DNA of 64,000 nucleotides from Escherichia coli (GTDB taxonomy: Bacteria; Pseudomonadota; Gammaproteobacteria; Enterobacterales; Enterobacteriaceae): the NCBI RefSeq assembly GCF_013315695.1, contig NZ_CP054353.1; one strand, 5' to 3'. Shown here in pieces: positions 1-63,991 of the stretch. The notes below the pieces were generated by a model. That model saw nothing but the letters and a program-made list of their open reading frames with translations. It was not told the DNA's origin and searched no databases. The position numbers and the translations under genes were made by a program. How positions within the stretch are numbered: position 1 is the first letter of the stretch; every line of letters starts with the position of its first letter.

Positions 1-603
1 CTGCTTATATAAATGGGCCTGATACCCAGCGACAATACCCAGTAAGAGAAGAATGAACAGAAGTAAATTACGGCAACGTAGCCCGGACGTGCCGGTTAAA
101 GGATGCCTTGTCGGCCAGCCGTATCCCAGCGAAAAACTGATATGCGTTCCAACGGGAATAATGACTATCCACCAGTACTCACCACCGACTAATGAGACTA
201 ACAAAACACCCAGCCAGGGAAGCATAAGATCTGCCAACCAACCTGAAACCATCTGGCGAAATTGATAATCTGCCAGATGTAGCGTGATTATCCAGCCAAC
301 CAGGGTTAATAAAGCGGGAACTAAAAAAAGACATTGTCGCCAGGCGGCTATTTCTCTGTTTTCTGGTGCGCTATCGCCCGCCCACACTCGCCCAGAGAAA
401 AATAGCAGTAATGCGCCCAGCGTCAGCATAAAGACGTTGAGTAGAAGATAAATTGTTGGTGTAAAGAGTAAATTGCAAAACTCAAGAATAGCGGCAAGCC
501 CGGCCCCCAGCATGGCAACAACCGCTGCCAAAAATTGCGCCAGTATGGGGATGCCAAAAAAAGTCATTACCAGCGAGGTCAAAATCCATTTTCCGTTTTG
601 CAT
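1..603 (-). CDS. Hypothetical polytopic inner-membrane protein, 5' part only (about 201 codons in window; 3' end lies beyond position 1)
   Basis: Reverse-strand frame opens with ATG at 603..601 (MQNGKWILTSLVMTFFGIPILAQFLAAVVAML...) and stays open to position 1; several hydrophobic segments. Not in the ORF track, presumably because no stop falls inside the window. Identity not recognised. Confidence 0.45.
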   Translation of the reverse strand, partial: MQNGKWILTSLVMTFFGIPILAQFLAAVVAMLGAGLAAILEFCNLLFTPTIYLLLNVFMLTLGALLLFFSGRVWAGDSAPENREIAAWRQCLFLVPALLTLVGWIITLHLADYQFRQMVSGWLADLMLPWLGVLLVSLVGGEYWWIVIIPVGTHISFSLGYGWPTRHPLTGTSGLRCRNLLLFILLLLGIVAGYQAHLYKQ

Positions 604-686
604 TATTCTTTCCATTCTTGCTGAATGGCGAAATTATACTCCCCGATAACCCTCGCCCCCTCTGGACACTTTTCCTAAATAAAGGC

Positions 687-11476: not shown

Positions 11477-11667
11477 AAGCGTTTTTTCCTGCAAAGATGT
11501 GTGCTGTATAAATGTGCCGGTCTCCTCCTGGCACATCTTTCACCATACAAAAAGCAGCCAAAGTCGCAAGTGAAATTAATCAATGATAGCGAAGCCATCA
11601 GTAATGCGACTTATCCTGCTTTGTTAGCACGCAGAAAGTCCGCGGCAATTATCAGGGAATTTGAGTT

Positions 11668-12261
11668 ATGAATGAAATCATTTCTGCAGCAGTTTTATTG
11701 ATCCTGATTATGGATCCGCTCGGAAACCTACCTATTTTCATGTCCGTACTGAAACATACTGAACCGAAAAGACGGCGGGCAATCATGGTGCGAGAGTTGC
11801 TTATTGCTCTCCTGGTGATGCTGGTGTTCCTGTTTGCGGGTGAGAAAATTCTGGCATTTCTCAGCCTGCGAGCAGAAACCGTCTCCATTTCTGGCGGCAT
11901 CATTCTGTTTCTGATCGCCATTAAGATGATTTTCCCCAGCGCTTCAGGAAATAGCAGCGGGCTTCCGGCAGGTGAAGAGCCGTTTATCGTGCCGTTGGCA
12001 ATTCCGTTAGTCGCCGGGCCGACTATTCTCGCCACGCTGATGTTGTTGTCTCATCAGTACCCGAATCAGATGGGACATCTGGTAATTGCTCTGCTGCTGG
12101 CCTGGGGTGGCACCTTTGTCATCCTGCTACAGTCTTCGCTATTTTTACGTCTGCTGGGCGAGAAAGGGGTGAATGCACTTGAACGCCTGATGGGATTGAT
12201 TCTGGTGATGATGGCAACTCAGATGTTCCTCGACGGCATTCGAATGTGGATGAAGGGGTAA
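11668..12261 (+). CDS. yhgN: MarC-family (UPF0056) inner-membrane protein
   Basis: 197-aa hydrophobic ORF, divergent from asd. Confidence 0.9.
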   Translation: MNEIISAAVLLILIMDPLGNLPIFMSVLKHTEPKRRRAIMVRELLIALLVMLVFLFAGEKILAFLSLRAETVSISGGIILFLIAIKMIFPSASGNSSGLPAGEEPFIVPLAIPLVAGPTILATLMLLSHQYPNQMGHLVIALLLAWGGTFVILLQSSLFLRLLGEKGVNALERLMGLILVMMATQMFLDGIRMWMKG

Positions 12262-12269
12262 GGTTCAAA

Positions 12270-12306
12270 CAGGTGCTGCACACAACCAGACGCGGCACCT
12301 GTTTTA
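12270..12306 (+). terminator. Rho-independent terminator of yhgN
   Basis: CAGGTGC (12270..12276) pairs with GCACCTG (12295..12301), followed by TTTT; ends immediately before the stop of the DprA-like gene on the other strand. Confidence 0.6.
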
Positions 12307-13509
12307 TTACCTGAACTGATAATGACCTTCGCCCAATCGAATAACCCTTCCCTCTTCTTCTGCGCGGTTCAGCCACACACTAATTTGTTCGATGGTTAAA
12401 CCAGTACAAGACGCCAGCCTTTCAATACTTATCGATTCCTTTGCAAGGATCGCCAGTTCCGCCACAAAGAGTTGATAAAAATCGACAGGCGTATGCGCGG
12501 GCATTACTGCGTAATTTGCGTCATCTTCATGCAGCGAAAACAGTTCTGGTTGAACGTTACGGAGTGCTTTGTCATACATCAGCCCAGGAACGTCTGGCAG
12601 TCTGATCGTCACATTCTCAGCCTGTTCAGCACTCCATGACGCCCCATTTTCTACTAATCGTGAATTGGCTGATTGCACATCCTGATTTGGTTTAACCAGA
12701 ACAGGCAGCCACTGATGTTTTAACGCCTCCATCGCTCCGGTTATCGTTCCACCGGTCATTCCCGCACGTACAACCATTGCGCTTTCAGCAAGGCAATAAA
12801 TATATTTATTCCGCGCCATTGCATTGCCGACGGTGAAACGTACCTCTGGGTAAAACGGTGAAATCAACACCAGGTTGCCTGCTATAAGCCCTTCACGCCA
12901 TTTCACTAACGTACTCGTTTTTAACAAGCTATCAGCTAATACGCCAACGGCAGTTCCCCCGGCCTCCAGTGCCGACGCCATTGCACATTCATCAATACCT
13001 CGCGCACCACCAGAGATAACGCAAATCCCCTGTTGGGCCAGTTTCGCTGCCAGTTGTTGGGTATAGCGCAAATCGGCAGTCGGAGCATCTCGCGAGCCAA
13101 CAATCGCCATACCTTCCGCTTGCAGTAATGCTTTATTCCCGCAGCCAAATAAAACGGGAGGTGCATCCGTTCGCAATCGGTTTTTCAAGCGAACGGGATA
13201 ATCGGCATCTCCGCGGGTTAAGATCCATAAACCGGCGCGTTGCCACTTATCTACCGCCAACGCCAGACTATGACCACGCGCCAGCAAGCCAAGAATACGC
13301 TCCTGAGAAATACGCGGATCGCTCCAGCCTGTAAGTTTCTCTTGCGGTTGCGGCACCAGAAGATCGGCGGGACTGATACGTTGGTGCTTCAGCCATAATG
13401 CAAACTTCCCCCATTCACTATTACTAAGAGGTTTATACTCACTCGCCGCCGCGCGAGAAAAATCGCTGGTTAGCAGGAGAGTTGCTTGTGCATTGGCTGA
13501 AAGATTCAT
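12307..13509 (-). CDS. DprA/Smf-like protein; putative partner (PsyrA/RqlI-like) of the upstream helicase
   Basis: 400 aa from ATG at 13509..13507 (the ORF-track start at 13602 lies inside the upstream gene). Rossmann motif VISGGARGIDECAMASAL typical of DprA, and a C-terminal winged-helix-like tail. Start shares one base with the upstream stop (TGATG). Confidence 0.75.
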   Translation of the reverse strand: MNLSANAQATLLLTSDFSRAAASEYKPLSNSEWGKFALWLKHQRISPADLLVPQPQEKLTGWSDPRISQERILGLLARGHSLALAVDKWQRAGLWILTRGDADYPVRLKNRLRTDAPPVLFGCGNKALLQAEGMAIVGSRDAPTADLRYTQQLAAKLAQQGICVISGGARGIDECAMASALEAGGTAVGVLADSLLKTSTLVKWREGLIAGNLVLISPFYPEVRFTVGNAMARNKYIYCLAESAMVVRAGMTGGTITGAMEALKHQWLPVLVKPNQDVQSANSRLVENGASWSAEQAENVTIRLPDVPGLMYDKALRNVQPELFSLHEDDANYAVMPAHTPVDFYQLFVAELAILAKESISIERLASCTGLTIEQISVWLNRAEEEGRVIRLGEGHYQFR

Positions 13510-15605
13510 CAATTTTTTACCGAGGTAGAAGCAAGGGCAAGAGGATAAACCGTCGGGCAACCTGCCTGGCGTAACAGTGCTGTCAGAACTGTCAGCGTCC
13601 ATGCAGAATCCACGATATCATCAACCAGCAACGCCGGACCTGGCATCAAAGGAGGGGTAATCACAAACGCCCCGTCGAGATTTTGACACTGGTGAAAACG
13701 GTTTTGCTGCATTTTCTGCGGTGGATTGTCCACGACTTTTTCAATGGCATCAATAAAAGGTAAGCCAAGTTTCGCCGCCAGTCGCCGGGCAAAATCAGGA
13801 ACCAGGTCGAGGTGCCTTAATGAAGGAACGCAGCATACCCAGGTTGGTTCAGGATGCGGATTCCAGCGTTGGCGAACCATTTCCGCACATGCTTCTACCA
13901 GCTCATCACTTAAGCGCCCCGTTTTTTTCTCCTGTGCTACCTGCTTTCCCCACCCGGAATCTCCCCAACGAGAAAGGATTCGCCCCGTAGATCCTTGTAA
14001 ACCCGCAGGCAAGTTCCCTTTAAATCCGTATTGCGTAAAAGCCCCAGCTGCCACCTGTTTATTGAGATTTAACGGCAGGTCAGCGTGTTTAATAAATAAA
14101 TTTGCCGCATGGAGTAAGCCGCTATCAATGTCGGGCGACAATAACGGATGCTGAAGACAACTGCTACATTTACCACAACGTTCGGCACTTGGCTCATCGA
14201 GTGCACGGCGCAGAAATTGCATTTTGCACTCCTTGGTCGTGATATAGCTTTCAACGTCTGCCAGTTCACTTTTTCTCTGATTCATCAAATGGTTAATTCG
14301 TTCATGATCAGGAGAAAAACTGACGATAGTTCTGCGCCATAATTTCTCGGTATACACCACAGGCGATGGATTTTCCGCTACCAATAATTTCAGTGCTTTT
14401 TCTATTTGCCCATAACGAAGATTCGTCCGTTGTTCAATGCCTCGTAGGGTAAGACCGTCATTCTCGCTAAGTACGTTGAGTATTTCATGAATTTGCGCCT
14501 CCGCAGGAAAGGCGCTTTCACGGAAGAATTGATGAATAGCGCGGTCTTCACCACCACAAAGCAATATGCCAACTGCGGAATCTATAGCACGCCCGGCACG
14601 CCCCACCTGTTGGTAGTAACCGACAATAGACCCCGGCATCTGATAATGAATGACGAAACCTAAATCAGGTTTATCAAACCCCATACCTAATGCCGTCGTC
14701 GCGACCAGCACTTTGATTTTATTTGCCAGCAGTGCCTGCTCCAGATATTCCCTGGCAGTATTAGAATCTTCCGCGCCTTCACAAGTCACGCCGCTGTAGT
14801 AAGCAAATGCACTGATACCATTTTTCCTTAACCACTCGGCGACAAGTTCAGCATCGCGAGTCGTCAGGGTATAAACAATTCCCGATTTGGAAAACTGAGG
14901 GATAACCGTTGCTAACCATGCCAGACGGGATGACTGTTCTCCTAAGACTAAGGCATCAAGCGCCAAACTTTCGCGAGCCAGCGTTCCACGCTGAATCACA
15001 ATGTCACCCAATTGCTGACGGATATCCTCAACAACACGGTTATTCGCTGTCGCGGTTGTACCCAGAACAGGGGTATTCGCAGGCAGTTGGCGCAAAATAT
15101 CTAATATACGTCGGTAATCCGGGCGAAAATCGTGGCCCCAATCAGAGATGCAGTGCGCCTCGTCGACCACAAGCAAGCCAATACGATCGGCTATAGGATA
15201 TAAAACCGTTTCGATAAAGTCCTGGTTTGCCAAACGTTCCGGGGAAACCAGCAAGCAATCGACCTCACCTTGCAGCAACTTATCGCTAATGCGCTGCCAT
15301 TCTTCCCTGTTTGTAGAATTCAACGTTTCAGCCGTAATACCTAACCGTTCAGCGGCGGCAACCTGGTTACGCATCAGGGCAAGCAAAGGAGAGATGATAA
15401 TTGTCGGGCCAGCGCCGCGATCGCGGAAGATTTTACTGGCGATGAAGTACACGGCACTTTTCCCCCAGCCGGTGCGCTGTACAACCAGCAGTTTTCGCCG
15501 CTGATTAACCACTGCATCTATGGCTTCCCATTGCCCTTCCCTGAAAGTAGCGGTGGTATTTCCTAACATCCGCTGTAAAAGCAATTCAGCTCCGTGCTTT
15601 TCCAT
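13509..15605 (-). CDS. RecQ-like DEAH helicase fused to a C-terminal ComF-type PRTase-like domain (PsyrT/RqlH-like)
   Basis: 698 aa. Helicase motifs TGWGKS, VVDEAHCISDWGHDFRPDY, LGTTATA, ATTALGMGFDKPD, YYQQVGRAGRA; CGKCSSC zinc-like motif; C-terminal segment with LLVDDIVDSAWT resembling the PRPP-binding loop of type-I PRTases. Confidence 0.8.
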   Translation of the reverse strand: MEKHGAELLLQRMLGNTTATFREGQWEAIDAVVNQRRKLLVVQRTGWGKSAVYFIASKIFRDRGAGPTIIISPLLALMRNQVAAAERLGITAETLNSTNREEWQRISDKLLQGEVDCLLVSPERLANQDFIETVLYPIADRIGLLVVDEAHCISDWGHDFRPDYRRILDILRQLPANTPVLGTTATANNRVVEDIRQQLGDIVIQRGTLARESLALDALVLGEQSSRLAWLATVIPQFSKSGIVYTLTTRDAELVAEWLRKNGISAFAYYSGVTCEGAEDSNTAREYLEQALLANKIKVLVATTALGMGFDKPDLGFVIHYQMPGSIVGYYQQVGRAGRAIDSAVGILLCGGEDRAIHQFFRESAFPAEAQIHEILNVLSENDGLTLRGIEQRTNLRYGQIEKALKLLVAENPSPVVYTEKLWRRTIVSFSPDHERINHLMNQRKSELADVESYITTKECKMQFLRRALDEPSAERCGKCSSCLQHPLLSPDIDSGLLHAANLFIKHADLPLNLNKQVAAGAFTQYGFKGNLPAGLQGSTGRILSRWGDSGWGKQVAQEKKTGRLSDELVEACAEMVRQRWNPHPEPTWVCCVPSLRHLDLVPDFARRLAAKLGLPFIDAIEKVVDNPPQKMQQNRFHQCQNLDGAFVITPPLMPGPALLVDDIVDSAWTLTVLTALLRQAGCPTVYPLALASTSVKN

Positions 15606-15707
15606 CTTTATCTCCTGCGATCTTTAGGCAGTGATTAGAACGGATTATTAGCAGGTAAATTTGCGAGAGAGATCAAAAAGATGAAGAGAGGAGATAAGAG
15701 AAATGAA

Positions 15708-15735
15708 TTACTGCGAGCAAGCTCGCAGTAATTTG
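15708..15735 (-). terminator. Terminator-like perfect hairpin downstream of gntU
   Basis: TTACTGCGAGC-AA-GCTCGCAGTAA at 15708..15731, about 14 nt past the gntU stop, with T-rich flank. Confidence 0.5.
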
Positions 15736-15744
15736 TCGCAGTAA

Positions 15745-17085
15745 TTAACTCAACAGCTGGAACGCAATCATCCCAACGATGGCACCAACAGTGCCGAGTA
15801 TGGTTTCCATCATGGTCCAGGTTTTCAGCGTTTCGGCTTCGGTCGCGCCGGTAAATTTACCGAACAACCAGAAACCGGCGTCGTTAACGTGGCTGACAAC
15901 AATCGAACCACCGGCGATACAAATCGACAGCGCCGCCATTTGCGCACCGGAGTAGTTCAGTTGTTCAATAACCGGCATCACCAGTCCCACCGCCGTTAAA
16001 CAGGCAACGGTGGCAGAACCCTGAATGATGCGCACTGCAGCTGCCAGCACGAAGCAGGTGATGGCAATCGGCAGGCCCATGCCGGTTAACGCTTCGCCCA
16101 GTGCCGGACCTACGCCTGAGTCAACCAGCACCTGTTTGAACACGCCGCCCGCACCAATCACCAGCAGAATGATCCCCGCCGGTTGCAGCGCGTGACCGCA
16201 AATTTCCATCACTTTATCTTTCGGCATGCCCTGACGCATTGCCAGACCGTAAATCGCCACCAGGCAAGCAACCAGAATCGCGGTAAACGGATGACCAATA
16301 AACTCGAACCATTCGTAAGCAGTAGAGCCTTCTGGCACAAAACGCGCGGCAATGGTTTTCAGCCCCACCAGCACCAGTGGCAACAGGATCAGCGACAGGC
16401 TGAATCCGAAGGACGGCATTTTGCCTTCGCCGAGATGCGGTTCGCTGATGTCGTCAGGAATATGCAACTCCACGTAGCGGCTGATGAAATTACCCCACAG
16501 CGGCCCGGCAATAATCATTCCCGGAATTGCCGCACACAGGCCAATCAGGATCATCCAGCCAAAGTCGGCGTTCATCTGCGATGCCAGCAGCATTGGCGCT
16601 GGTCCAGGCACCAGGAACGCAGCCGCGGCCGCCACGCCTGCAAATAATGGGATTACCAGCTTCACCAGGTTCGTACCGGTGTGGCGCGCCATTGAGAAAG
16701 CAACGCTAATCAGCAGAACAATCGCCACTTCAAAGAACAACGGCAACGCACAGACCAGCCCCGCAAGGCCGATGGCATAATGCGCGCGGCTGTGACCGAA
16801 GGATTTGAGCATTTTGACGGCAATCTGATCGACTGCGCCGGTTTCATGTAAGATCTTGCCAAACATGGCTCCCAGGGCGACAACCACCGCCAGGAAGCCG
16901 AGGGTGCCTCCCATCCCTTTTTCCATCGTCGCTGCGATTTTATCGAGCGGCATACCGGAAAAAAGGCCAGCCCCCATAGACACCACCATTAAAGCCAGGA
17001 AAGCGTGCATACGCGCCTTCATGACTAAAAACAGCAGCAGTAAAACAGACCCTACTGCTGTTAAAACAAGCGTTAATGTAGTCAC
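15745..17085 (-). CDS. gntU: Low-affinity gluconate:H+ symporter
   Basis: 446-aa GntP-family permease; annotated start is GTG at 17085..17083, 3 nt after the gntK stop (see finding on the internal hairpin). Confidence 0.9.
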   Translation of the reverse strand: MTTLTLVLTAVGSVLLLLFLVMKARMHAFLALMVVSMGAGLFSGMPLDKIAATMEKGMGGTLGFLAVVVALGAMFGKILHETGAVDQIAVKMLKSFGHSRAHYAIGLAGLVCALPLFFEVAIVLLISVAFSMARHTGTNLVKLVIPLFAGVAAAAAFLVPGPAPMLLASQMNADFGWMILIGLCAAIPGMIIAGPLWGNFISRYVELHIPDDISEPHLGEGKMPSFGFSLSLILLPLVLVGLKTIAARFVPEGSTAYEWFEFIGHPFTAILVACLVAIYGLAMRQGMPKDKVMEICGHALQPAGIILLVIGAGGVFKQVLVDSGVGPALGEALTGMGLPIAITCFVLAAAVRIIQGSATVACLTAVGLVMPVIEQLNYSGAQMAALSICIAGGSIVVSHVNDAGFWLFGKFTGATEAETLKTWTMMETILGTVGAIVGMIAFQLLS

Positions 17086-20829: not shown

Positions 20830-20950
20830 GATTTCGTCCTTATTAAGGTGGTTATTTACACCTTAGCGCAAAGCGGATGTGGTTCCTACTGGAGTGCGCA
20901 TAACGAACACAAGCACTCTCGTGGATAAATTGAGAACGAAAGATCAAAAA

Positions 20951-21040
20951 AAAAGCCAGCACCCGGCTGGCTAAGTAATACTGGAAGCAATGTGAGCAAT
21001 GTCGTGCTTTCAGGTTCTCCGCGAGGGTCTTCCTGATCGC
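20951..21040 (-). ncRNA. ryhB: RyhB small RNA (Fur-repressed, Hfq-dependent)
   Basis: Reverse complement of 20951..21040 reads GCGATCAGGAAGACCCTCGCGGAGAACCTGAAAGCACGACATTGCTCACATTGCTTCCAGTATTACTTAGCCAGCCGGGTGCTGGCTTTT, the RyhB sequence as I know it, ending in a GCCAGC/GCTGGC terminator hairpin and U-tract. ORF-track entries 20852..21100 and 21010..21225 across it are spurious. Confidence 0.9.
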
Positions 21041-21886: not shown

Positions 21887-23065
21887 ATGAGTAATATTGT
21901 TTACCTGACAGTAACGGGAGAACAACAAGGAAGCATCTCCGCAGGTTGTGGGACTTCTGAGTCTACAGGTAATCGCTGGCAGAGCGGGCATGAGGATGAA
22001 ATATTTACATTCTCACTCTTAAATAGTATTACTAATACGGGGCTTGGTTCACAGTTCCATGGTATAACATTTTGTAAATTAATTGATAAAAGCACTCCAT
22101 TATTTATTAATTCCATTAACAATAATGAACAATTATTTATGGGATTTGACTTCTATCGAATAAATAGATTTGGTAGATGGGAAAAGTATTATTATATACA
22201 ACTAAGAGGCGCTTTTTTATCGGCTATTCATCATCAGATCATTGAAAATCAACTGGATACAGAAACAATAACTGTTAGTTATGAATTTATCCTCTGTCAA
22301 CATATTATCGCAAATACCGAGTTCAGCTATTTGGCACTCCCTGAAAATTATAACTGTTTGTTTTTACCAAATTCAAAAAACCAAACAAATAATCGTTTCA
22401 AAACGTTAAACAGCAAAGCTATTGGCAGGCTACTTGCTGCTGGTGGCGTATACAATGGGAACATTGAAGGATTCAGAGATACTGCGGAAAAACTGGGTGG
22501 AGATGCAATAAAAGGCTATGATCAAATACTAAATGAAAAAACAGCGGGCATAGCGATAGCAACAGCATCTATTCTTTTAACAAAGCGTTCTAATGTTGAT
22601 ACATATACAGAAATAAATAGTTACTTAGGCAAACTTAGAGGTCAACAAAAACTTCTTGATGGTATAGACATAATAGAAATAATATACATTAAGAGACCTT
22701 CAAAAGACTTAGCTAACTTACGAAAGGAGTTTAATAAAACTGTAAGAAAAAATTTTCTTATCAAACTTACAAAAACCTCCGAAGCATCTGGAAGATTCAA
22801 CGCCGAAGACCTTTTAAGAATGAGAAAGGGCAATGTTCCTCTAAATTATAATGTTCACCATAAACTATCTCTAGATGATGGTGGTACTAATGATTTCGAA
22901 AATTTAGTATTAATCGAAAACGAACCATATCATAAAGTTTTTACTAACATGCAATCACGAATAGCTAAGGGAATATTAGTAGGTGAAAGCAAAATCACTC
23001 CCTGGGCCATTCCATCTGGCTCAATTTATCCTCCCATGAAAAATATTATGGAACCCACAAAATGA
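21887..23065 (+). CDS. yhhZ: Hcp-family (T6SS tube-like) protein with C-terminal HNH-type nuclease motif; orphan Hcp-toxin fusion
   Basis: 392 aa; Hcp-like N-terminus MSNIVYLTVTGEQQGSISAGCGTSESTGNRWQSGHEDEIFTF; C-terminal NYNVHHKLSLDDGGTNDFENLVLIENEPYHKVF (HH..N..H pattern); AT-rich codon usage. Confidence 0.85.
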   Translation: MSNIVYLTVTGEQQGSISAGCGTSESTGNRWQSGHEDEIFTFSLLNSITNTGLGSQFHGITFCKLIDKSTPLFINSINNNEQLFMGFDFYRINRFGRWEKYYYIQLRGAFLSAIHHQIIENQLDTETITVSYEFILCQHIIANTEFSYLALPENYNCLFLPNSKNQTNNRFKTLNSKAIGRLLAAGGVYNGNIEGFRDTAEKLGGDAIKGYDQILNEKTAGIAIATASILLTKRSNVDTYTEINSYLGKLRGQQKLLDGIDIIEIIYIKRPSKDLANLRKEFNKTVRKNFLIKLTKTSEASGRFNAEDLLRMRKGNVPLNYNVHHKLSLDDGGTNDFENLVLIENEPYHKVFTNMQSRIAKGILVGESKITPWAIPSGSIYPPMKNIMEPTK

Positions 23066-23556
23066 TGACTAAAACCCAAATAAATAAATTAAAAAAAATG
23101 ATGAATGATTTAGACTATCCATTTGAAGCACCGCTCAAGGAATCATTTATTGAAAGTATAATCCAAATAAAATTTAATTCTAATTCAACTAATTGCCTGG
23201 AGAAGTTATGTAATGAAGTTAGTATTCTCTTTAATAATCAACCTGATTATCTTACTTTTTTAAGAGCAATGGATGGATTCGAAGTTAATGGATTACGATT
23301 ATTCAGCCTCTCGATTCCAGAACCTTCAGTTAAAAACCTTTTTGCCGTAAATGAATTTTATAGAAATAATGATGATTTCATAAACCCTGATCTACAAGAA
23401 CGGTTAGTGATCGGGGATGATAGCATTTCAATATTTACTTATGACATTAAAAATAACTTTTTTGAAATTAGAGATAATATTGGCACAGAAAATATATTCA
23501 GTTCGTTTAGTGATTTCTCTTCATTCTTAAACGAAATCATGGACAGTTGTTCATAA
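23062..23556 (+). CDS. yrhA: Hypothetical protein, candidate immunity protein for the YhhZ nuclease
   Basis: 164-aa ORF whose ATG overlaps the yhhZ stop (ATGA); AT-rich; immunity role inferred from arrangement only. Confidence 0.65.
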   Translation: MMTKTQINKLKKMMNDLDYPFEAPLKESFIESIIQIKFNSNSTNCLEKLCNEVSILFNNQPDYLTFLRAMDGFEVNGLRLFSLSIPEPSVKNLFAVNEFYRNNDDFINPDLQERLVIGDDSISIFTYDIKNNFFEIRDNIGTENIFSSFSDFSSFLNEIMDSCS

Positions 23557-24005
23557 TAATCAAAAGGTAACAAAAATCATTATAAACCATGCCATCTTTT
23601 TAGAGATTACCAGCAGAAAATTCCTTGTTCGAAACTTAGCAATGCAAGCTATGGAAAAACTTACAACGGAACTACACTCCTTAAGTGAGATGGACCGAAG
23701 ACATGTAATCTCTATTTTAGCCGAAATAGCTAATGGCTATGATGATTTTAGTGACATGTTGATTTAGTTAGAATTTCACCCGAATCATAAGATTCTGATA
23801 TCTTAAATAAGAAAATCCCGTTCGACGTTCTGAAAAAGAAATCACAAAACATTAGCAGATACTTATTTCGTGACTGTATATTATCCGATGAACTTTTTTC
23901 AAAACCAGCATTTAATAATATCTTTGACGAAGATGAACGCGTCTTTTCTCAAAGTATAACGCAAGAATAATAATATAACGATCAACAATAATATTTATTA
24001 TAATT

Positions 24006-24290
24006 ATGATTACTTATCACGACGCATTCGCGAAAGCGAACCATTACCTTGATGATGCAGATCTCGCCGTCATCATTACTCTACATGGACGCTTTAGCCA
24101 GGGCTGGTATTTCTGTTTCGAAGCACGAGAATTTCTCGAAACTGGTGATGAGGCCGCGCGTTTAGCCGGTAACGCACCTTTTATTATTGATAAAGACAGT
24201 GGTGAAATTCATTCCCTTGGAACGGCAAAGCCGCTGGAAGAATATCTACAGGATTATGAAATAAAAAAGGCTACCTTCGGCTTGCCCTGA
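24006..24290 (+). CDS. yrhB: YrhB-family small protein (reported heat-stable chaperone-like protein)
   Basis: 94-aa ORF MITYHDAFAKANHYLDDADLAVIITLHGRFSQGWYFCFEAREFLETGDEAARLAGNAPFIIDKDSGEIHSLG..., recognised as YrhB. Confidence 0.8.
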   Translation: MITYHDAFAKANHYLDDADLAVIITLHGRFSQGWYFCFEAREFLETGDEAARLAGNAPFIIDKDSGEIHSLGTAKPLEEYLQDYEIKKATFGLP

Positions 24291-31922: not shown

Positions 31923-32669
31923 TCATTGCACCACACTCTGCTTCAGCCGTTCATTGGCGGTCTTAATCCATTCCCGGTGGTGTTTTCTATAATGTGGTTT
32001 TGAACGTTTAGCCGTATCAACCACAGCAATATACTGCTCGTTGGCTTCACGTAACCGACTCATTTTCGCCAACATTTCCGCATAGTAAATACGTGCCTGC
32101 GGGCCGGGGTAATAAGAAACAAGCACCTCAAACTCACTTTCCGCATCAGCGTATTTTTCTTGTGCGGCTAACGCTCTGGCAAATAACAAATGCCCGTCTG
32201 CCGACTGAAAATCGGGGTTATAACGCATCACATCTTCCAGCGTCTGCTGACAGGCGGCGAACTCCTGAATAGCAAATTGCACCTGCGCCAGGCTTAACAT
32301 CATTACCGCTTCATGGGCGAAAATTCCGCTTAACGCCTGCTGATAATGGGGAACGGCTTCGTGATAACGCCCAAGGCGCGCCAGTTCGTTAGCTAACGCA
32401 TAATGGTTTTGATTAGTCTCGGCAATCGCCAGCTCTTCGGTTAATTTGTGCAGGTGGCGTTCCGGGCTGATTTTGTCCTGCAGGCGCATCAGCAAAGTAC
32501 GCCCGTGACGGTCAGCGCCCGTTTCAGGCAGCATGACCATGACGAAATACGCCACGCAGCCAATCACCGGAAAACAGAAGATAATAAAAATCCAGTATCG
32601 CTCTTGTCCGGAGCGATAAGCGTGAATACAGCAAAGCAGTTCAAGCATGACGACAACGGCATAATGCAT
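31923..32669 (-). CDS. Hypothetical membrane-anchored protein: PLDc_N-like two-helix N-terminus plus TPR-like repeat domain
   Basis: 248 aa. N-terminus HAYRSGQERYWIFIIFCFPVIGCVAYFVMVMLPE resembles the PLD-superfamily N-terminal membrane domain (compare cardiolipin synthase N-terminus); the rest is helical-repeat-like. I do not recall a gene between ugpB and livF in K-12. Confidence 0.7.
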   Translation of the reverse strand: MHYAVVVMLELLCCIHAYRSGQERYWIFIIFCFPVIGCVAYFVMVMLPETGADRHGRTLLMRLQDKISPERHLHKLTEELAIAETNQNHYALANELARLGRYHEAVPHYQQALSGIFAHEAVMMLSLAQVQFAIQEFAACQQTLEDVMRYNPDFQSADGHLLFARALAAQEKYADAESEFEVLVSYYPGPQARIYYAEMLAKMSRLREANEQYIAVVDTAKRSKPHYRKHHREWIKTANERLKQSVVQ

Positions 32670-59276: not shown

Positions 59277-60023
59277 ATGAAATCATTAAGTAAGTCGTCA
59301 CAAATACCGCTCTATCAACAAGTGGTGGAGTGGATAAGAGAAAGTATTTATACCGGGGATCTGGTGGAAGACGATCGCATTCCTTCGGAATACCAGATTA
59401 TGGATATGCTGGAAGTGAGTCGGGGAACCGTTAAAAAAGCGGTCGCCCAACTGGTAAAAGAAGGCGTGTTGATTCAGGTCCAGGGGAAGGGAACTTTTGT
59501 CAAAAAAGAGAACGTGGCATATCCGTTAGGTGAAGGATTATTGTCATTCGCGGAATCGCTGGAAAGCCAGAAAATACATTTTACCACTGAAGTTATTACG
59601 TCACGGATTGAACCGGCTAATCGTTATGTGGCAGAGAAATTAAGAATAACGCCCGGTCAGGATATTCTTTACCTTGAGCGTTTACGTTCAATTGGTGATG
59701 AAAAAGCGATGCTGATAGAGAACCGTATCAATATTGAGCTATGCCCCGGCATCGTGGAAATCGATTTTAATCAACATAATTTATTTCCAACAATAGAAAG
59801 TTTGTCGCAAAGAAAAATTCGTTACTCGGAAAGTCGCTATGCCGCGCGATTAATTGGTAATGAACGCGGTCATTTTTTAGATATCAGTGAAGATGCACCC
59901 GTTTTGCATCTGGAGCAGTTAGTCTTTTTCTCCCGAGAGTTACCCGTTGAGTTTGGCAACGTCTGGTTAAAAGGAAATAAATATTATCTGGGCACCGTGC
60001 TGCAACGGCGGGAAGTGAGTTAA
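59277..60023 (+). CDS. GntR/HutC-family transcriptional regulator (HTH plus UTRA-type effector domain)
   Basis: ATG at 59277 with AGGTG RBS (ORF track starts at GTG 59268); N-terminal HTH LVEDDRIPSEYQIMDMLEVSRGTVKKAVAQLVKEG. Confidence 0.8.
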   Translation: MKSLSKSSQIPLYQQVVEWIRESIYTGDLVEDDRIPSEYQIMDMLEVSRGTVKKAVAQLVKEGVLIQVQGKGTFVKKENVAYPLGEGLLSFAESLESQKIHFTTEVITSRIEPANRYVAEKLRITPGQDILYLERLRSIGDEKAMLIENRINIELCPGIVEIDFNQHNLFPTIESLSQRKIRYSESRYAARLIGNERGHFLDISEDAPVLHLEQLVFFSRELPVEFGNVWLKGNKYYLGTVLQRREVS

Positions 60024-60047
60024 ATACACTTTTTTATGAGGAATAAA

Positions 60048-60521
60048 ATGCAAGGCATACAGTTTCAGGAAAATTATATTCAACGACTTCCGGCAGGGTT
60101 AAGCGTTGAACAGATCATCCGTCAGTTAGCGCAACCGTTGGTTGCTGCTGAGCTGGTGGTCCCTGATTTTGCCAATCACGTACTGAAACGTGAGGCGACG
60201 TACCCAACGGGGCTGCCTACCGAACCACCGTGCGTCGCCATTCCGCACACGGACCATAAACATGTCCGGCACAATGCAATTGCCGTCGGTATTTTGCCAG
60301 AGCCGGTAGAGTTTGCCGATATGGGCGGCGACCCTGATCCCGTACCTGTCAGGGTGATTTTTTTGCTCGCCTTAAGTGAAAGTAATAAACAATTAAATGC
60401 CCTGGGCTGGATTATGGAGATGATTCAGGATACGCCCTTTATGCGCGCCCTGCTTACGATGGAAACAACAGAAATACACACAGTAATCTTAAACAAAATG
60501 AATGAACGAGGTGAAATATGA
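60048..60521 (+). CDS. PTS EIIA component, galactitol-type (EIIA-2 fold)
   Basis: ATG at 60048 with GAGGA RBS; phospho-His region CVAIPHTDHKHV; overall similar to GatA-type EIIA. Confidence 0.8.
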   Translation: MQGIQFQENYIQRLPAGLSVEQIIRQLAQPLVAAELVVPDFANHVLKREATYPTGLPTEPPCVAIPHTDHKHVRHNAIAVGILPEPVEFADMGGDPDPVPVRVIFLLALSESNKQLNALGWIMEMIQDTPFMRALLTMETTEIHTVILNKMNERGEI

Positions 60522-60799
60522 GTCAAACCATTTTATTTGTCTGCGCCACAGGTATTGCCACATCCACGGCGGTAACAGAAAAAGTCATGGAGTATTGCAA
60601 AGAGCACGGCCTTAACGTCAATTATTCCCAAACCAACGTTGCCTCTTTACCCGGTAATACCGACGGCGTAGCGCTGGTTGTTTCAACGACTAAAGTGCCT
60701 TATGAACTCGACGTCCCGGTAGTTAACGGCTTGCCGATTATTACCGGTATTGGCGAAGAGAAAGTACTGGCGCAAATTGTTTCGATTCTTAAAAAGTAA
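60518..60799 (+). CDS. PTS EIIB component, galactitol-type
   Basis: 93-aa ORF with phospho-Cys motif ILFVCATGIATS near the N-terminus; ATGA overlap with the EIIA gene. Confidence 0.8.
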   Translation: MSQTILFVCATGIATSTAVTEKVMEYCKEHGLNVNYSQTNVASLPGNTDGVALVVSTTKVPYELDVPVVNGLPIITGIGEEKVLAQIVSILKK

Positions 60800-60872
60800 T
60801 TAATAATTAATTCCAACCCACTCCATCAGGCGCTAACGCGAGGTGCGCTCTCGCCTGAAAAAGAGGTTTATT

Positions 60873-62231
60873 ATGAACGATATCGCGCATACCCTCTATA
60901 ATATTGTGCAATATATATTGGGATTTGGCCCCACGGTAATGTTGCCGTTGGTGTTATTTATTCTTGCTCTCTGTTTTAAAGTAAAACCCGCTAAAGCCTT
61001 ACGCTCGTCATTAACAGTCGGCATTGGTTTTGTCGGTATTTATGCCATTTTCGATATTCTTACCAGCAATGTCGGGCCAGCGGCCCAGGCGATGGTTGAA
61101 CGCACCGGAATTAATTTACCGGTGGTGGATTTAGGCTGGCCGCCGCTTTCCGCTATTACATGGGGTTCGCCAATTGCCCCGTTTGTTATTCCCCTGACCA
61201 TTCTGATTAATGTCGCAATGCTGGCGTTAAATAAAACCCGCACCGTTGATGTAGATATGTGGAACTACTGGCATTTTGCCCTTGCCGGTACGCTGGTTTA
61301 TTACAGCACCGGCAGCCTATTCTTTGGTTTGCTGGCGGCCGCGATTGCCGCAGTGGTGGTGCTAAAACTCGCCGACTGGTCTGCGCCACTGGTACAAAAA
61401 TACTTTGGCCTGGAAGGGATCTCATTGCCGACGCTCTCTTCGGTGGTGTTCTTCCCGGTCGGTCTGCTGGTCGACAAAATCATCGACCATATCCCTGGCC
61501 TCAATCGTATTCATATCGACCCGGAAACCGTACAGAAAAAGTTTGGCATCTTCGGCGAACCGATGATGGTTGGCACTATTCTGGGCATTCTGCTCGGCGT
61601 AATTGCCGGATACGATTTCAAAAAAGTCTTGCTGCTTGGCATCAGCATTGGCGGTGTGATGTTCATCCTGCCACGCATGGTTCGCATCCTGATGGAAGGT
61701 TTATTACCGCTGTCTGAAGCCATTAAAAAGTATCTCAATGCCAAATACCCTGACCGTGACGATCTCTATATAGGACTGGATATCGCCGTTGCCGTAGGTA
61801 ACCCGGCGATTATCTCCACCGCCCTGCTGCTGACGCCAATCTCGGTCTTTATCGCGTTTGTCCTCCCAGGTAATGAAGTCCTGCCGCTTGGCGACCTTGC
61901 CAACCTGGCGGTAATGGCGTCGATGATTGCTTTAGCCAGCCGTGGCAATATTTTCCGCACCGTTCTGGCGGCGATCCCGGTGATTATTGCCGACCTGTGG
62001 ATTGCCACTAAAATCGCGCCGTTTATTACCGGAATGGCGAAAGACGTTAACTTCAAATTTGCCGAAGGCTCCAGCGGCCAGGTTTCCAGTTTCCTTGATG
62101 GCGGTAACCCGTTCCGCTTCTGGCTGCTGGAAATCTTCAACGGCAATCTCATCGCCATTGGTCTGGTGCCGGTTATCGCCCTGATACTGTATGGCATTTT
62201 CCGAATGACGCGGAGCACGGTTTATGCCTGA
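60873..62231 (+). CDS. PTS EIIC permease, galactitol (Gat) family
   Basis: ATG at 60873 with AGAGG RBS (ORF track starts at GTG 60843); conserved blocks GPTVMLP, GIGFVGI, VDLGWPP, GEP, GNIFRT shared with GatC-type EIIC. Confidence 0.8.
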   Translation: MNDIAHTLYNIVQYILGFGPTVMLPLVLFILALCFKVKPAKALRSSLTVGIGFVGIYAIFDILTSNVGPAAQAMVERTGINLPVVDLGWPPLSAITWGSPIAPFVIPLTILINVAMLALNKTRTVDVDMWNYWHFALAGTLVYYSTGSLFFGLLAAAIAAVVVLKLADWSAPLVQKYFGLEGISLPTLSSVVFFPVGLLVDKIIDHIPGLNRIHIDPETVQKKFGIFGEPMMVGTILGILLGVIAGYDFKKVLLLGISIGGVMFILPRMVRILMEGLLPLSEAIKKYLNAKYPDRDDLYIGLDIAVAVGNPAIISTALLLTPISVFIAFVLPGNEVLPLGDLANLAVMASMIALASRGNIFRTVLAAIPVIIADLWIATKIAPFITGMAKDVNFKFAEGSSGQVSSFLDGGNPFRFWLLEIFNGNLIAIGLVPVIALILYGIFRMTRSTVYA

Positions 62232-63732
62232 TAACAGCGCAGCTATCGTTATCGATATTGGCACCACCAATTGCAAAGTCACCTGCTTTTCCTGCCTGGA
62301 TGCAACGACGTTGGGCGCGCATAAATTCGTGACGGCAAAACAGATCTCCCCACAGGGCGATGTCGATTTCGATATCGACGTCCTCTGGCAGGAGGTCCGC
62401 CAGGCAATAGCGCAACTGAGCGCCGCTTCGCCGCTGCCGGTCAGGCGGATAAGCATTGCCAGTTTTGGCGAGTCAGGGGTGTTTCTTGACGAGCATGGCG
62501 AGATCCTGACGCCAATGCTGGCATGGTATGACCGCCGCGGTGAAGAGTACCTGGCAACGCTTAGTGAGGCAGACAGTGCGGCGCTTTATGACATCTGCGG
62601 GCTACCGCTGCACAGCAATTACTCTGCCTTCAAAATGCGTTGGTTGCTGGAGCATTATCCACTGCGTAATCGCCGCGGCCTGCGTTGGCTACATGCGCCG
62701 GAAGTACTGCTCTGGCGGCTGACTGGCGAACAGCGTACGGATATCACCTTAGCCAGCCGTACGCTGTGTCTGGACGTGCGTAAAGGCGAATGGTCAGCGA
62801 AAGCGGCGGCGTTGTTACACGTTCCCTGTTCAGCATTTGCGCCATTGGTGCAGCCAGGCGAGCACGCCGGATGGGTCAGCGAGTCGCTCTGCAAAACGCT
62901 TGGGTTCTTGCAACCGGTCAGCGTGACGCTGGCCGGGCATGACCATATGGTGGGTGCGCGGGCGTTGCAGATGACGCCGGGCGATATCCTTAACTCGACG
63001 GGCACCACAGAAGGCATTCTGCAACTGGATACACAACCGACGCTGGATGAACAGGCCAAACGTGACAAGCTGGCAAACGGCTGTTATTCGCTTGCAAACC
63101 AGTTCACCCTGTTTGCGTCGCTGCCGGTGGGCGGTTTCGCTCTGGAGTGGCTGCGCAACACGTTCCGGCTAACCGATGAGGAGATCGCCGCATCACTTAC
63201 TCGCGGACATGCGGATTACCTGGCGGGGAACTGGTCGCTCGATGACATTCCCGTTTTTATTCCGCATCTTCGCGGTTCGGGTTCGCCCTATAAAAATCGC
63301 CATACCCGAGGATTATTTTATGGGCTTGGCGATACGTTAAATATCGATATGTTAATTGCCAGCGTCTCACTGGGATTAACCATGGAATTTGCCAACTGCT
63401 TCGCCTGTTTTAATGTGCCCGGCACCAGCGCGTTAAAAGTGATAGGTCCGGCAACCCATAATCCCCTTTGGCTGCAATTAAAGGCGGATATTTTACAGCG
63501 TCCGGTTGAAGCAATTGCATTTAACGAGGCGGTTTCTGTCGGAGCATTATTAACCGCCGCACCGGATATTCCACCGCCGCAAGTCACCATAGCCCAACGT
63601 TTGTTACCGAATCGGGCGAGATACCATCAATTACAGCGTTATCAGCACAAATGGAAAAGCTGGTATCAGTTGAAATTACAGCAAGAAGGCGTGATGCCAT
63701 TACATCATCGGGAGGAGCACTATGTTGAGTAA
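62224..63732 (+). CDS. FGGY-family carbohydrate kinase (rhamnulokinase/fuculokinase-like)
   Basis: 502-aa ORF; N-terminal phosphate-binding loop AIVIDIGTTNCKV and the FGGY second motif region AGHDHMVGA; overlaps the EIIC stop by 8 nt. Confidence 0.75.
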   Translation: MPDNSAAIVIDIGTTNCKVTCFSCLDATTLGAHKFVTAKQISPQGDVDFDIDVLWQEVRQAIAQLSAASPLPVRRISIASFGESGVFLDEHGEILTPMLAWYDRRGEEYLATLSEADSAALYDICGLPLHSNYSAFKMRWLLEHYPLRNRRGLRWLHAPEVLLWRLTGEQRTDITLASRTLCLDVRKGEWSAKAAALLHVPCSAFAPLVQPGEHAGWVSESLCKTLGFLQPVSVTLAGHDHMVGARALQMTPGDILNSTGTTEGILQLDTQPTLDEQAKRDKLANGCYSLANQFTLFASLPVGGFALEWLRNTFRLTDEEIAASLTRGHADYLAGNWSLDDIPVFIPHLRGSGSPYKNRHTRGLFYGLGDTLNIDMLIASVSLGLTMEFANCFACFNVPGTSALKVIGPATHNPLWLQLKADILQRPVEAIAFNEAVSVGALLTAAPDIPPPQVTIAQRLLPNRARYHQLQRYQHKWKSWYQLKLQQEGVMPLHHREEHYVE

Positions 63733-63991
63733 AACCGTGGAGGTCAGAAACAGTACTGGCCTGCATGCACGTCCGGCGGCCTGTCTGGCGAAAGCCGCCA
63801 AAAAATATAGCTGTAAAGTGACGCTGCATTATGAAGGTAATGATATTAATGCCACCAGCATGATGAATATTATGCGCGCCGGAATAAAAGGCGGAAAAAC
63901 GGTGGAAATACGCTGCGAAGGTGATGATGAAAACGAGGCAATACAAACTCTCACTACCTTATTTCGCGACCGCTTCGGTGAAGCTGAATAA
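63722..63991 (+). CDS. HPr-like phosphocarrier protein
   Basis: 89-aa ORF with the HPr active-site context NSTGLHARPAA (phospho-His); overlaps the kinase 3' end by 11 nt. Confidence 0.75.
   Translation: MLSKTVEVRNSTGLHARPAACLAKAAKKYSCKVTLHYEGNDINATSMMNIMRAGIKGGKTVEIRCEGDDENEAIQTLTTLFRDRFGEAE

Follow-up and report, generated by a model that had tools for sequence, protein, structure and literature searches.

The rqlHI operon and described relatives

PsyrTA, said to have been described from Pseudomonas syringae by Sberro in 2013 and reportedly presented as an antiphage system by Millman in 2022, is a two-gene system in which a RecQ-like helicase fused to a phosphoribosyltransferase (PRTase) is the toxin and a DprA-like protein is the antitoxin. 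Genes of this architecture, which is also that of the PADLOC and DefenseFinder models of the system, were identified in a 64,000-nucleotide stretch of Escherichia coli DNA (contig NZ_CP054353.1 of assembly GCF_013315695.1; the whole stretch is referred to here as the window). They are rqlH (psyrT) and rqlI (psyrA), PsyrTA and RqlHI being two names for one system, and they lie in the gene order glgP-A-C-X-B, asd, yhgN, the rqlI/rqlH pair, gntU-K-R.

In E. coli, RqlHI is known from the extraintestinal pathogenic (ExPEC) strains F11, CFT073 and 536 (PMC4670107). F11 RqlH has 698 amino acids (aa) and RqlI 400 aa, and the residues probed by mutation are those of the helicase (K49A, D148A) and of the phosphoribosyl pyrophosphate (PRPP) loop (D663A, DIVD663EVME) (Russell & Mulvey, 2015; PMC4670107). 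The two F11 genes are co-transcribed as a two-gene unit, as determined by reverse transcription PCR. Without RqlI, RqlH induces SOS, makes cells filament, is mutagenic and lowers viability; the PRTase domain and D663 of the PRPP loop are required for this toxicity, and the PRTase domain alone is harmless. RqlI binds and neutralises RqlH, and deletion of rqlH rescued an rqlI mutant, in vitro as well as in vivo (PMC4670107). The loss of rqlI in uropathogenic strains strongly costs fitness in vivo. Many Gram-positive bacteria have rqlH without rqlI (PMC4670107).

The RqlH of Mycobacterium smegmatis (691 aa) was studied as a stand-alone helicase. Proteins of this type are DNA-dependent ATPases and 3'-5' helicases, and their ComF-like C-terminus is dispensable for unwinding (Ordonez, Unciuleac & Shuman, 2012; PMC3378886). 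The domain order is that of the window protein: a RecQ-like ATPase, a specific linker (a spacer of ~90 aa without counterpart in RecQ), a tetracysteine zinc module and a ComF-like PRTase, without HRDC. K49 and D148 of E. coli RqlH are equivalent to residues of the mycobacterial protein (PMC4670107). Both the ComF-like C-terminal architecture and the presence of RqlH in non-K-12 E. coli were already published in 2012 (PMC3378886).

Heterologous PsyrTA has been listed among phage-resistance systems, and a psyrA deletion could not be transformed or made; the reported protection was that of a heterologous donor's system and not of the window's E. coli allele. A related system is ShosTA, in which ShosT binds PRPP, which is essential for toxicity, and perturbs purine metabolism and DNA replication. 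Its partner ShosA is a DprA-like binder of single-stranded DNA (ssDNA) that acts through RecA, and the triggers of ShosTA involve host shut-off or phage DNA (PMC11961720, PMC12961424).

Identity of the locus

The window proteins match the PADLOC profiles of PsyrTA over essentially their full length. The PsyrT profile (PDLC03928) aligns with residues 3-697 of RqlH over profile positions 5-687 of 689 (E = 0, 1064 bits), and the PsyrA profile (PDLC03927) aligns with RqlI at 4.4e-201. As in F11, rqlH comes first, the proteins are 698 and 400 aa long, and RqlH carries K49, D148 and the DIVD motif at 663, with the published numbering. This likeness to F11 is one of published sizes and residue numbers; direct alignment was made with the proteins of E. 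coli Nissle (EcN), with which RqlH and RqlI share 98.6% and 97.8% aa identity at unchanged length. The window thus differs from EcN by allelic changes only (about 10 in RqlH and 9 in RqlI, including G168S inside the GGARGID motif of RqlI) and has the 5' untranslated region (UTR) and promoter of the other haplotype. Like F11 RqlHI, the window locus is absent from K-12 (PMC4670107).

Every feature of PsyrTA/RqlHI that can be looked for in sequence was found: the PsyrT match, the helicase core, a zinc module without HRDC, a C-terminal PRTase domain with a PRPP loop, and a PsyrA match downstream. An earlier note on this DNA, written from its letters, had seen a resemblance to PsyrTA/RqlHI. The full-length profile matches and the shared lengths and residue numbers go further, and by its sequence the locus is the E. 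coli rqlHI operon itself. The operon was published already (2012, 2013, 2015, 2022) and is called automatically by standard defence finders; our reading is a correct re-identification, not a new one. We conclude that the locus is very probably the chromosomal E. coli rqlHI/PsyrTA, a two-gene toxin-antitoxin-like module, for which we propose a mechanism in which infection releases the PRTase. The window holds an intact copy under native regulation, with all catalytic motifs present, of a system carried by ~30% of E. coli. Coordinates of the locus are given in Table 1.

Table 1. Features of the rqlHI locus, in window coordinates.
Feature	Position	Strand	Basis or remark
Accessory segment, whole	12262..15744	(-)	From yhgN stop to gntU stop, as compared with NCTC9041, whose site is empty
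13-bp-stem hairpin between the convergent yhgN and rqlI stops; likely bidirectional terminator	12267..12304	(.)	Inverted repeat I9, 92% complementary
rqlI/psyrA, 400-aa DprA-like partner, antitoxin component	12307..13509	(-)	PADLOC PsyrA; published size 400 aa
DprA Rossmann-fold (SLOG) domain of RqlI, aa 89-292	12634..13245	(-)	DNA_processg_A 6.1e-50, LDcluster4 2.9e-11
rqlH/psyrT, 698-aa RecQ-like helicase-PRTase, toxin component	13509..15605	(-)	PADLOC PsyrT; annotated RecQ family helicase WP_001551777.1
ComF-like PRTase domain of RqlH, aa 488-698	13512..14144	(-)	PRPP loop LLVDDIVDSAWT, aa 659-670; D663 is the published toxicity residue
RecQ-type tetracysteine zinc-binding module of RqlH, aa 443-484	14154..14279	(-)	RecQ_Zn_bind E 1.4e-3
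RqlH-specific linker between ATPase core and zinc module, aa 356-442	14280..14540	(-)	No clear family
RecQ-type superfamily 2 (SF2) ATPase core of RqlH, aa 19-355	14541..15551	(-)	TIGR00614, DEAD, Helicase_C, structure 1oyw
5' region of rqlHI	15606..15705	(-)	Ribosome-binding site (RBS) AGGAG 8 nt before ATG; presumed promoter; two haplotypes among strains
Perfect 13-bp hairpin with T-rich tail just downstream of gntU	15706..15733	(-)	Terminator-like site; inverted repeat I2, 100% complementary

Domain organization of RqlH and RqlI

The earlier note had described a 698-aa protein with a complete RecQ-type helicase core, a CGKCSSC zinc-like motif and a C-terminal ComF-type PRTase-like segment, followed by a 400-aa product with the DprA signature GGARGID. 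All of these were recovered, the PRTase with a weak sequence signal, and the profile and PADLOC searches that it had proposed gave matches to DEAD, Helicase_C, Pribosyltran, DNA_processg_A, PsyrT and PsyrA. The RqlH motifs occur once each, TGWGKS at 45, VVDEAHCISDWGHDFRPDY at 146 (with DEAH at 148), TATA at 184, YYQQVGRAGRA at 330, CGKCSSC at 477 and LLVDDIVDSAWT at 659. The core comprises motif 0 (FREGQ), motif I (GWGKS, 46-50, with K49), motif II (DEAH, with D148), the aromatic loop CISDWGHDFRPDY, motif III (TATA) and motif VI (QQVGRAGR, 332). RqlH scores 252.8 bits against TIGR00614 (recQ_fam), above the cut-off of 219.8, and matches the Pfam families DEAD (4.9e-25) and Helicase_C (4.2e-13). 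In a sequence search of solved structures it matches E. coli RecQ (1oyw) at 2.1e-53.

The sole match in the linker is a weak one to MarR_2 (E 0.19, aa 373-410); this region may possibly be a winged helix. The zinc module has cysteines C460, C477, C480 and C483. Their spacing, C-x16-C-x2-C-x2-C, is what we take to be the pattern of the RecQ zinc module. In a Pfam profile search there was no HRDC match and no RQC-type match after this module.

Sequence signals for the PRTase, in the last ~210 residues, are weak: Pfam Pribosyltran 8.4e-3, GntX/ComF 0.011, and a best sequence match in the Protein Data Bank (PDB) at E 0.24. Structure prediction gives this domain a ComFC-like fold, markedly nearer to ComFC than to ShosT, and it is this predicted closeness that is mildly new here.

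In RqlI, the GGARGID motif spans aa 167-173. The protein matches solved structures of DprA (3maj, 4ljr) at ~1e-11 and of ShosA (9vzo) at 7.8e-8.

Comparison with RecQ, competence proteins and ShosTA

RqlH shares its ATPase core and zinc module with housekeeping RecQ. It differs in the extra ~90-aa linker and in having a PRTase domain instead of RQC-type and HRDC domains after the zinc module. It also falls below the RecQ equivalog cut-offs (TIGR01389, 296.3 versus 640.2 bits; PRK11057, 225.5 versus 1015 bits), and on the first of these scores RqlH is not the housekeeping RecQ.

With competence proteins the likeness lies in domains. RqlI shares the Rossmann domain of DprA but misses the curated cut-offs (TIGR00732, 102.5 versus 191.15 bits; PRK10736, 80.6 versus 495 bits). 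RqlH resembles ComFC (ComF/GntX) in fold only: ComF/GntX proteins stand alone at ~230 aa, whereas in RqlH the PRTase is fused to a RecQ-type helicase, and the score against GntX NF008616 is 15.3 bits versus a cut-off of 304. Unlike competence ComFC and DprA, RqlHI is accessory and toxic and is no part of a DNA-uptake machine.

The relation to ShosTA that the earlier note had drawn holds for the DprA-like partner and fails, at sequence level, for the toxin. RqlI matches the ShosA profile hidden Markov model (HMM) at 3.2e-27 over residues 85-272, far less well than it matches PsyrA; by these scores RqlI and ShosA are related families, not the same one. The PRTase domain of RqlH has no match to the ShosT HMM even at E<=10. 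Membership of the toxin in ShosTA was therefore rejected, as RqlH has a helicase, which ShosT lacks, and no ShosT HMM match. In both systems toxicity involves a PRPP-binding PRTase and the outcome is DNA damage and filamentation (PMC11961720, PMC12961424). The antitoxins act differently: ShosA neutralises ShosT without binding it, via RecA and ssDNA (PMC11961720, PMC12961424), whereas RqlI physically binds RqlH (PMC4670107).

Distribution and decay in E. coli

A census of 5426 complete E. coli genomes, in which rqlH and rqlI were searched separately, found the cassette in 1650 (~30%), including ST131, Nissle and O157:H7. All 1659 places are on the chromosome, always one per genome, and in sampled genomes that lack the cassette yhgN directly adjoins gntU. 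Thus, the pair is accessory rather than housekeeping, as the earlier note had proposed. Compared with the empty site of NCTC9041, a 3483-bp segment stands in place of a 56-bp yhgN-gntU spacer, with breakpoints exactly at the stop codons of the flanking yhgN and gntU. No direct or inverted repeats, integrase, transposase or tRNA target was found at the borders. An origin as a mobile element or integrative island was rejected on the grounds that the segment contains nothing but the two genes, lacks both mobility genes and border repeats, breaks off exactly at the flanking stop codons and is chromosomal at all places.

By far most carriers have the two genes intact, at ~97-100% identity. In a count of structural damage (splits and truncations), rqlI is full length and unbroken in 1650 of 1650 carriers and rqlH is split or truncated in eight. 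Such breakage of the toxin gene, and never of the antitoxin gene alone, is what a toxin-antitoxin model predicts.

Individual strains illustrate the damage. In O157:H7 strain 7.1_Anguil (locus L003, 2410-4534), rqlH is a pseudogene: it has lost 1 nt at nt 516 and gained 29 nt at nt 1788, and translation stops at codon 202. The rqlI reading frame beside the dead rqlH is intact in the O157:H7 genome examined, which leaves an orphan antitoxin. All sampled O157:H7 genomes give the same two-piece match, 28 bp longer, and in Sakai (NC_002695.2, 4291592-4295102) a pseudogene is annotated at this place. The clinical isolate NRZ94505 (locus L010, 5248-8413) has an ISEcp1-blaCTX-M-15 unit inside rqlH; the helicase part is lost and rqlI is intact, so the insertion of a resistance gene disarmed the toxin gene. 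The PRTase remnant of this rqlH is named 'ComF family protein' by the Prokaryotic Genome Annotation Pipeline (PGAP).

Over positions 11600-15800 the window is 100% identical to E. coli isolate AF3 (NZ_OZ547117.1). Against strain 54214, all 24 differences within 11862-15800 lie in yhgN, in rqlI or in the final bases of rqlH, which is otherwise identical. The rqlI allele of the window is at least 99% identical in only nine genomes, and its rqlH allele reaches that level in 323. These allele counts, together with the confinement of the differences to the 11862-13620 side, place a recombination breakpoint near the rqlH/rqlI junction.

Homologous pairs elsewhere

RqlHI homologues were found on plasmids. 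On the E. coli IncF plasmid NZ_OX030731.1 (locus L006, 1694-11773), a diverged PsyrT/PsyrA pair (60.6% and 49% identity) has hsdS on one side and hsdR on the other, within a type I restriction-modification (RM) operon. On an Acinetobacter plasmid (locus L007, 1-14091), a likewise diverged pair lies between pglX and pglZ of BREX-1, next to a DUF262 gene. On a Nostoc plasmid a homologous pair adjoins parAB. These plasmid homologues are full length, with the DprA-like gene immediately downstream. The RM, BREX and parAB contexts support a role in defence or addiction over one in housekeeping repair, and functional coupling with the host defence operon, as for PrrC in type I RM loci, is a possibility that the embedding raises. 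Among phage records, none covers more than 67% of RqlH, and the matches are plain RecQ-like helicases.

Weighing of the toxin-antitoxin reading and its alternatives

Several observations weigh against the reading of the locus as a defence module of the toxin-antitoxin type. The PRTase, on which toxicity depends, is weakly supported at the sequence level (8.4e-3). The native PsyrTA of E. coli NILS69 had no detectable antiphage effect, whether judged by deletion or in MG1655, where its expression caused only a growth defect. Loss of helicase activity does not make RqlH harmless, and RqlI offsets only part of the harm done by the helicase-dead protein (PMC4670107), so a simple on/off picture is incomplete. 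The system also has features that are not canonical for toxin-antitoxin systems, namely large proteins, the toxin gene in first position and more persisters in the double deletion (PMC4670107); the canonical type II layout, with proteins of ~100 aa and the antitoxin gene upstream, does not fit a pair of 698 and 400 aa in which the toxin gene leads. The pair is a lone two-gene insert between housekeeping genes, outside any defence island or mobile element. Its E. coli alleles differ by only ~3% and always occupy one chromosomal site, and in this the cassette resembles a pair of genes of long residence, not defence cargo with rapid turnover.

According to a rival explanation, the working model of the 2015 study, RqlH and RqlI form an accessory DNA-repair or genome-maintenance helicase that acts on host DNA to the benefit of the cell, for example at stalled forks or unusual structures, with toxicity as a by-product of an unbalanced complex. 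RqlH homologues are indeed genuine 3'-5' helicases, and mycobacteria with RqlH are without classical RecQ (PMC3378886). The phenotype of the rqlI deletion depends on oxygen and stress, and its authors propose a cooperative, beneficial DNA function (PMC4670107); the stable chromosomal locus without marks of mobility, and the native host in which a phage phenotype was not detected, would suit such a function as well. A maintenance helicase is difficult to reconcile, however, with a cassette that is missing from 70% of E. coli genomes, with an rqlH that is inactive throughout the sampled O157:H7 lineage and disrupted by an insertion sequence elsewhere while rqlI is kept, or with the rescue of the rqlI mutant by rqlH deletion, in vitro and in vivo (PMC4670107). 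The homologues inside RM and BREX operons and the report of heterologous PsyrTA among phage-resistance systems also speak against it, and we regard this explanation as improbable.

We give about the same low weight to the view that rqlHI is a selfish addiction module that brings no benefit to the host and persists because loss of rqlI is lethal while rqlH is active. The toxin-antitoxin behaviour (PMC4670107), the asymmetric decay in which rqlH is broken and rqlI always kept, the pair beside parAB on the Nostoc plasmid and the lack of phage protection by the native E. coli system are all as this view would have them. Yet there is no mobile element to stabilise at the locus, by far most of the 1650 carriers keep the two genes intact (~97-100% identity), the homologues placed within RM and BREX operons speak for defence, and heterologous PsyrTA is reported among phage-resistance systems.

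That the pair is a second natural-competence set, with a helicase motor, ComF and DprA serving to take up or process transforming DNA, is scarcely credible: the partner has a DprA domain (6e-50) and the link is discussed in PMC4670107, but the DprA and GntX scores lie far under their curated cut-offs (102.5 versus 191.15 and 15.3 versus 304), E. coli strains encode a separate canonical DprA (PMC4670107), the distribution is accessory, the toxicity and the defence-operon contexts fit an uptake machine poorly, and the helicase is RecQ-type, with no other helicase family matching as well and no ComFA model among the matches listed.

Proposed mechanism

In the toxin-antitoxin reading, which we prefer, the RqlH-RqlI complex would be inert in uninfected cells. 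Phage infection may perturb RqlI in one of two ways: ssDNA or recombination intermediates may engage its DprA domain and the helicase, or host synthesis may be shut off. This perturbation would free the helicase-tethered PRTase, which might then use PRPP on or near DNA, or act on the purine pool as ShosT does. Replication would be blocked and DNA damaged, and the cell would arrest or die before phage release (abortive infection). The earlier note had regarded the mechanism of PsyrTA as unresolved; no paper resolving it was found in the literature searched, and no solved PsyrT structure matches RqlH by sequence.

A more specific idea, which we advance tentatively and consider rather doubtful, is that the toxic module of RqlH is a ComFC-type, ssDNA-handling PRTase brought to DNA by the RecQ motor, and not a ShosT-like consumer of PRPP. 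RqlHI would in that case be a repurposed competence-style ssDNA machine that reads phage ssDNA or recombination intermediates and damages DNA, for example by adding phosphoribosyl groups to DNA or to bases bound to it. The predicted PRTase fold nearer to ComFC and the direct binding of RqlH by RqlI leave room for such a DNA-directed mechanism, hypothetical as it is and distinct from that of ShosTA. It is also allowed by the findings that the PRTase domain alone is non-toxic and that helicase mutations alter toxicity (PMC4670107). The predicted ComFC-like fold, the structural breakage of rqlH only across 1650 genomes and the embedding in RM and BREX operons could guide experiments.

Gene structure and expression signals

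The list of open reading frames puts both genes at the very coordinates that the earlier note had given (Table 1). The rqlH stop and the rqlI start share one base in TGATG (...AAT TGATG AAT...), the rqlI ATG taking the A of the rqlH TGA. This one-base overlap suggests translational coupling of the two genes. The RefSeq annotation by PGAP instead gives rqlI 431 aa, from a start at 13602 (-) inside the PRPP-loop codons of rqlH, with a 94-nt overlap. We set this start aside in favour of the 400-aa one, because the PsyrA profile aligns end to end (positions 1-397 of 398 with residues 1-400), the published size is 400 aa, and the Shine-Dalgarno sequence is poor at both candidate starts, with the TGATG overlap at the shorter one.

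The layout is compatible with a two-gene operon: the genes overlap, and hairpins lie upstream and downstream of the pair. The upstream hairpin reads as a gntU terminator carried on the inserted segment, which would insulate rqlHI from gntU read-through. A promoter scan of 15606-15744 gave no consensus sigma-70 match upstream of rqlH. In a three-sequence alignment, the 5' UTR and promoter (15606-15660 (-)) fall into two haplotypes, one in the window and O157 and the other in EcN. Substitutions are concentrated in two places, the RBS (GCAGGAGATAAAG versus GAGGGAGAAGATG) and an AT-rich stretch resembling a -10 element, and expression of rqlHI may thus differ between lineages.

Other features of the window

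A low-GC block (~31% GC) at 21887-24290 (+) encodes yhhZ (annotated tssD, Hcp-like, 392 aa), yrhA, a fragment of yrhD, and yrhB, and has the look of an orphan island of the Hcp-effector/immunity type. Between ugpB and livF, at 31923-32669 (-), is a gene for a 248-aa tetratricopeptide-repeat protein, which we take to be outside the K-12 gene order. A search for other defence genes near the locus gave no PADLOC match for the proteins of the yhhZ/yrhA block or for this gene.

Also present, at the window edge (1-606 (-)) beside glgP, is a gene annotated as a PstS-family phosphate-binding protein. The K-12 neighbour of glgP at this position is presumably different, and this may be another variable locus. 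After nikR, the genes at 59277-63991 (+) are a GntR-family regulator, phosphotransferase system (PTS) components IIA, IIB and IIC (galactitol-type), an FGGY kinase and an HPr-like gene; together they look like an accessory sugar-utilisation operon. The small RNA RyhB (Rfam RF00057, 83 bits), encoded at 20947-21011 (-) between yhhX and yhhY, is the only Rfam family found in the window.

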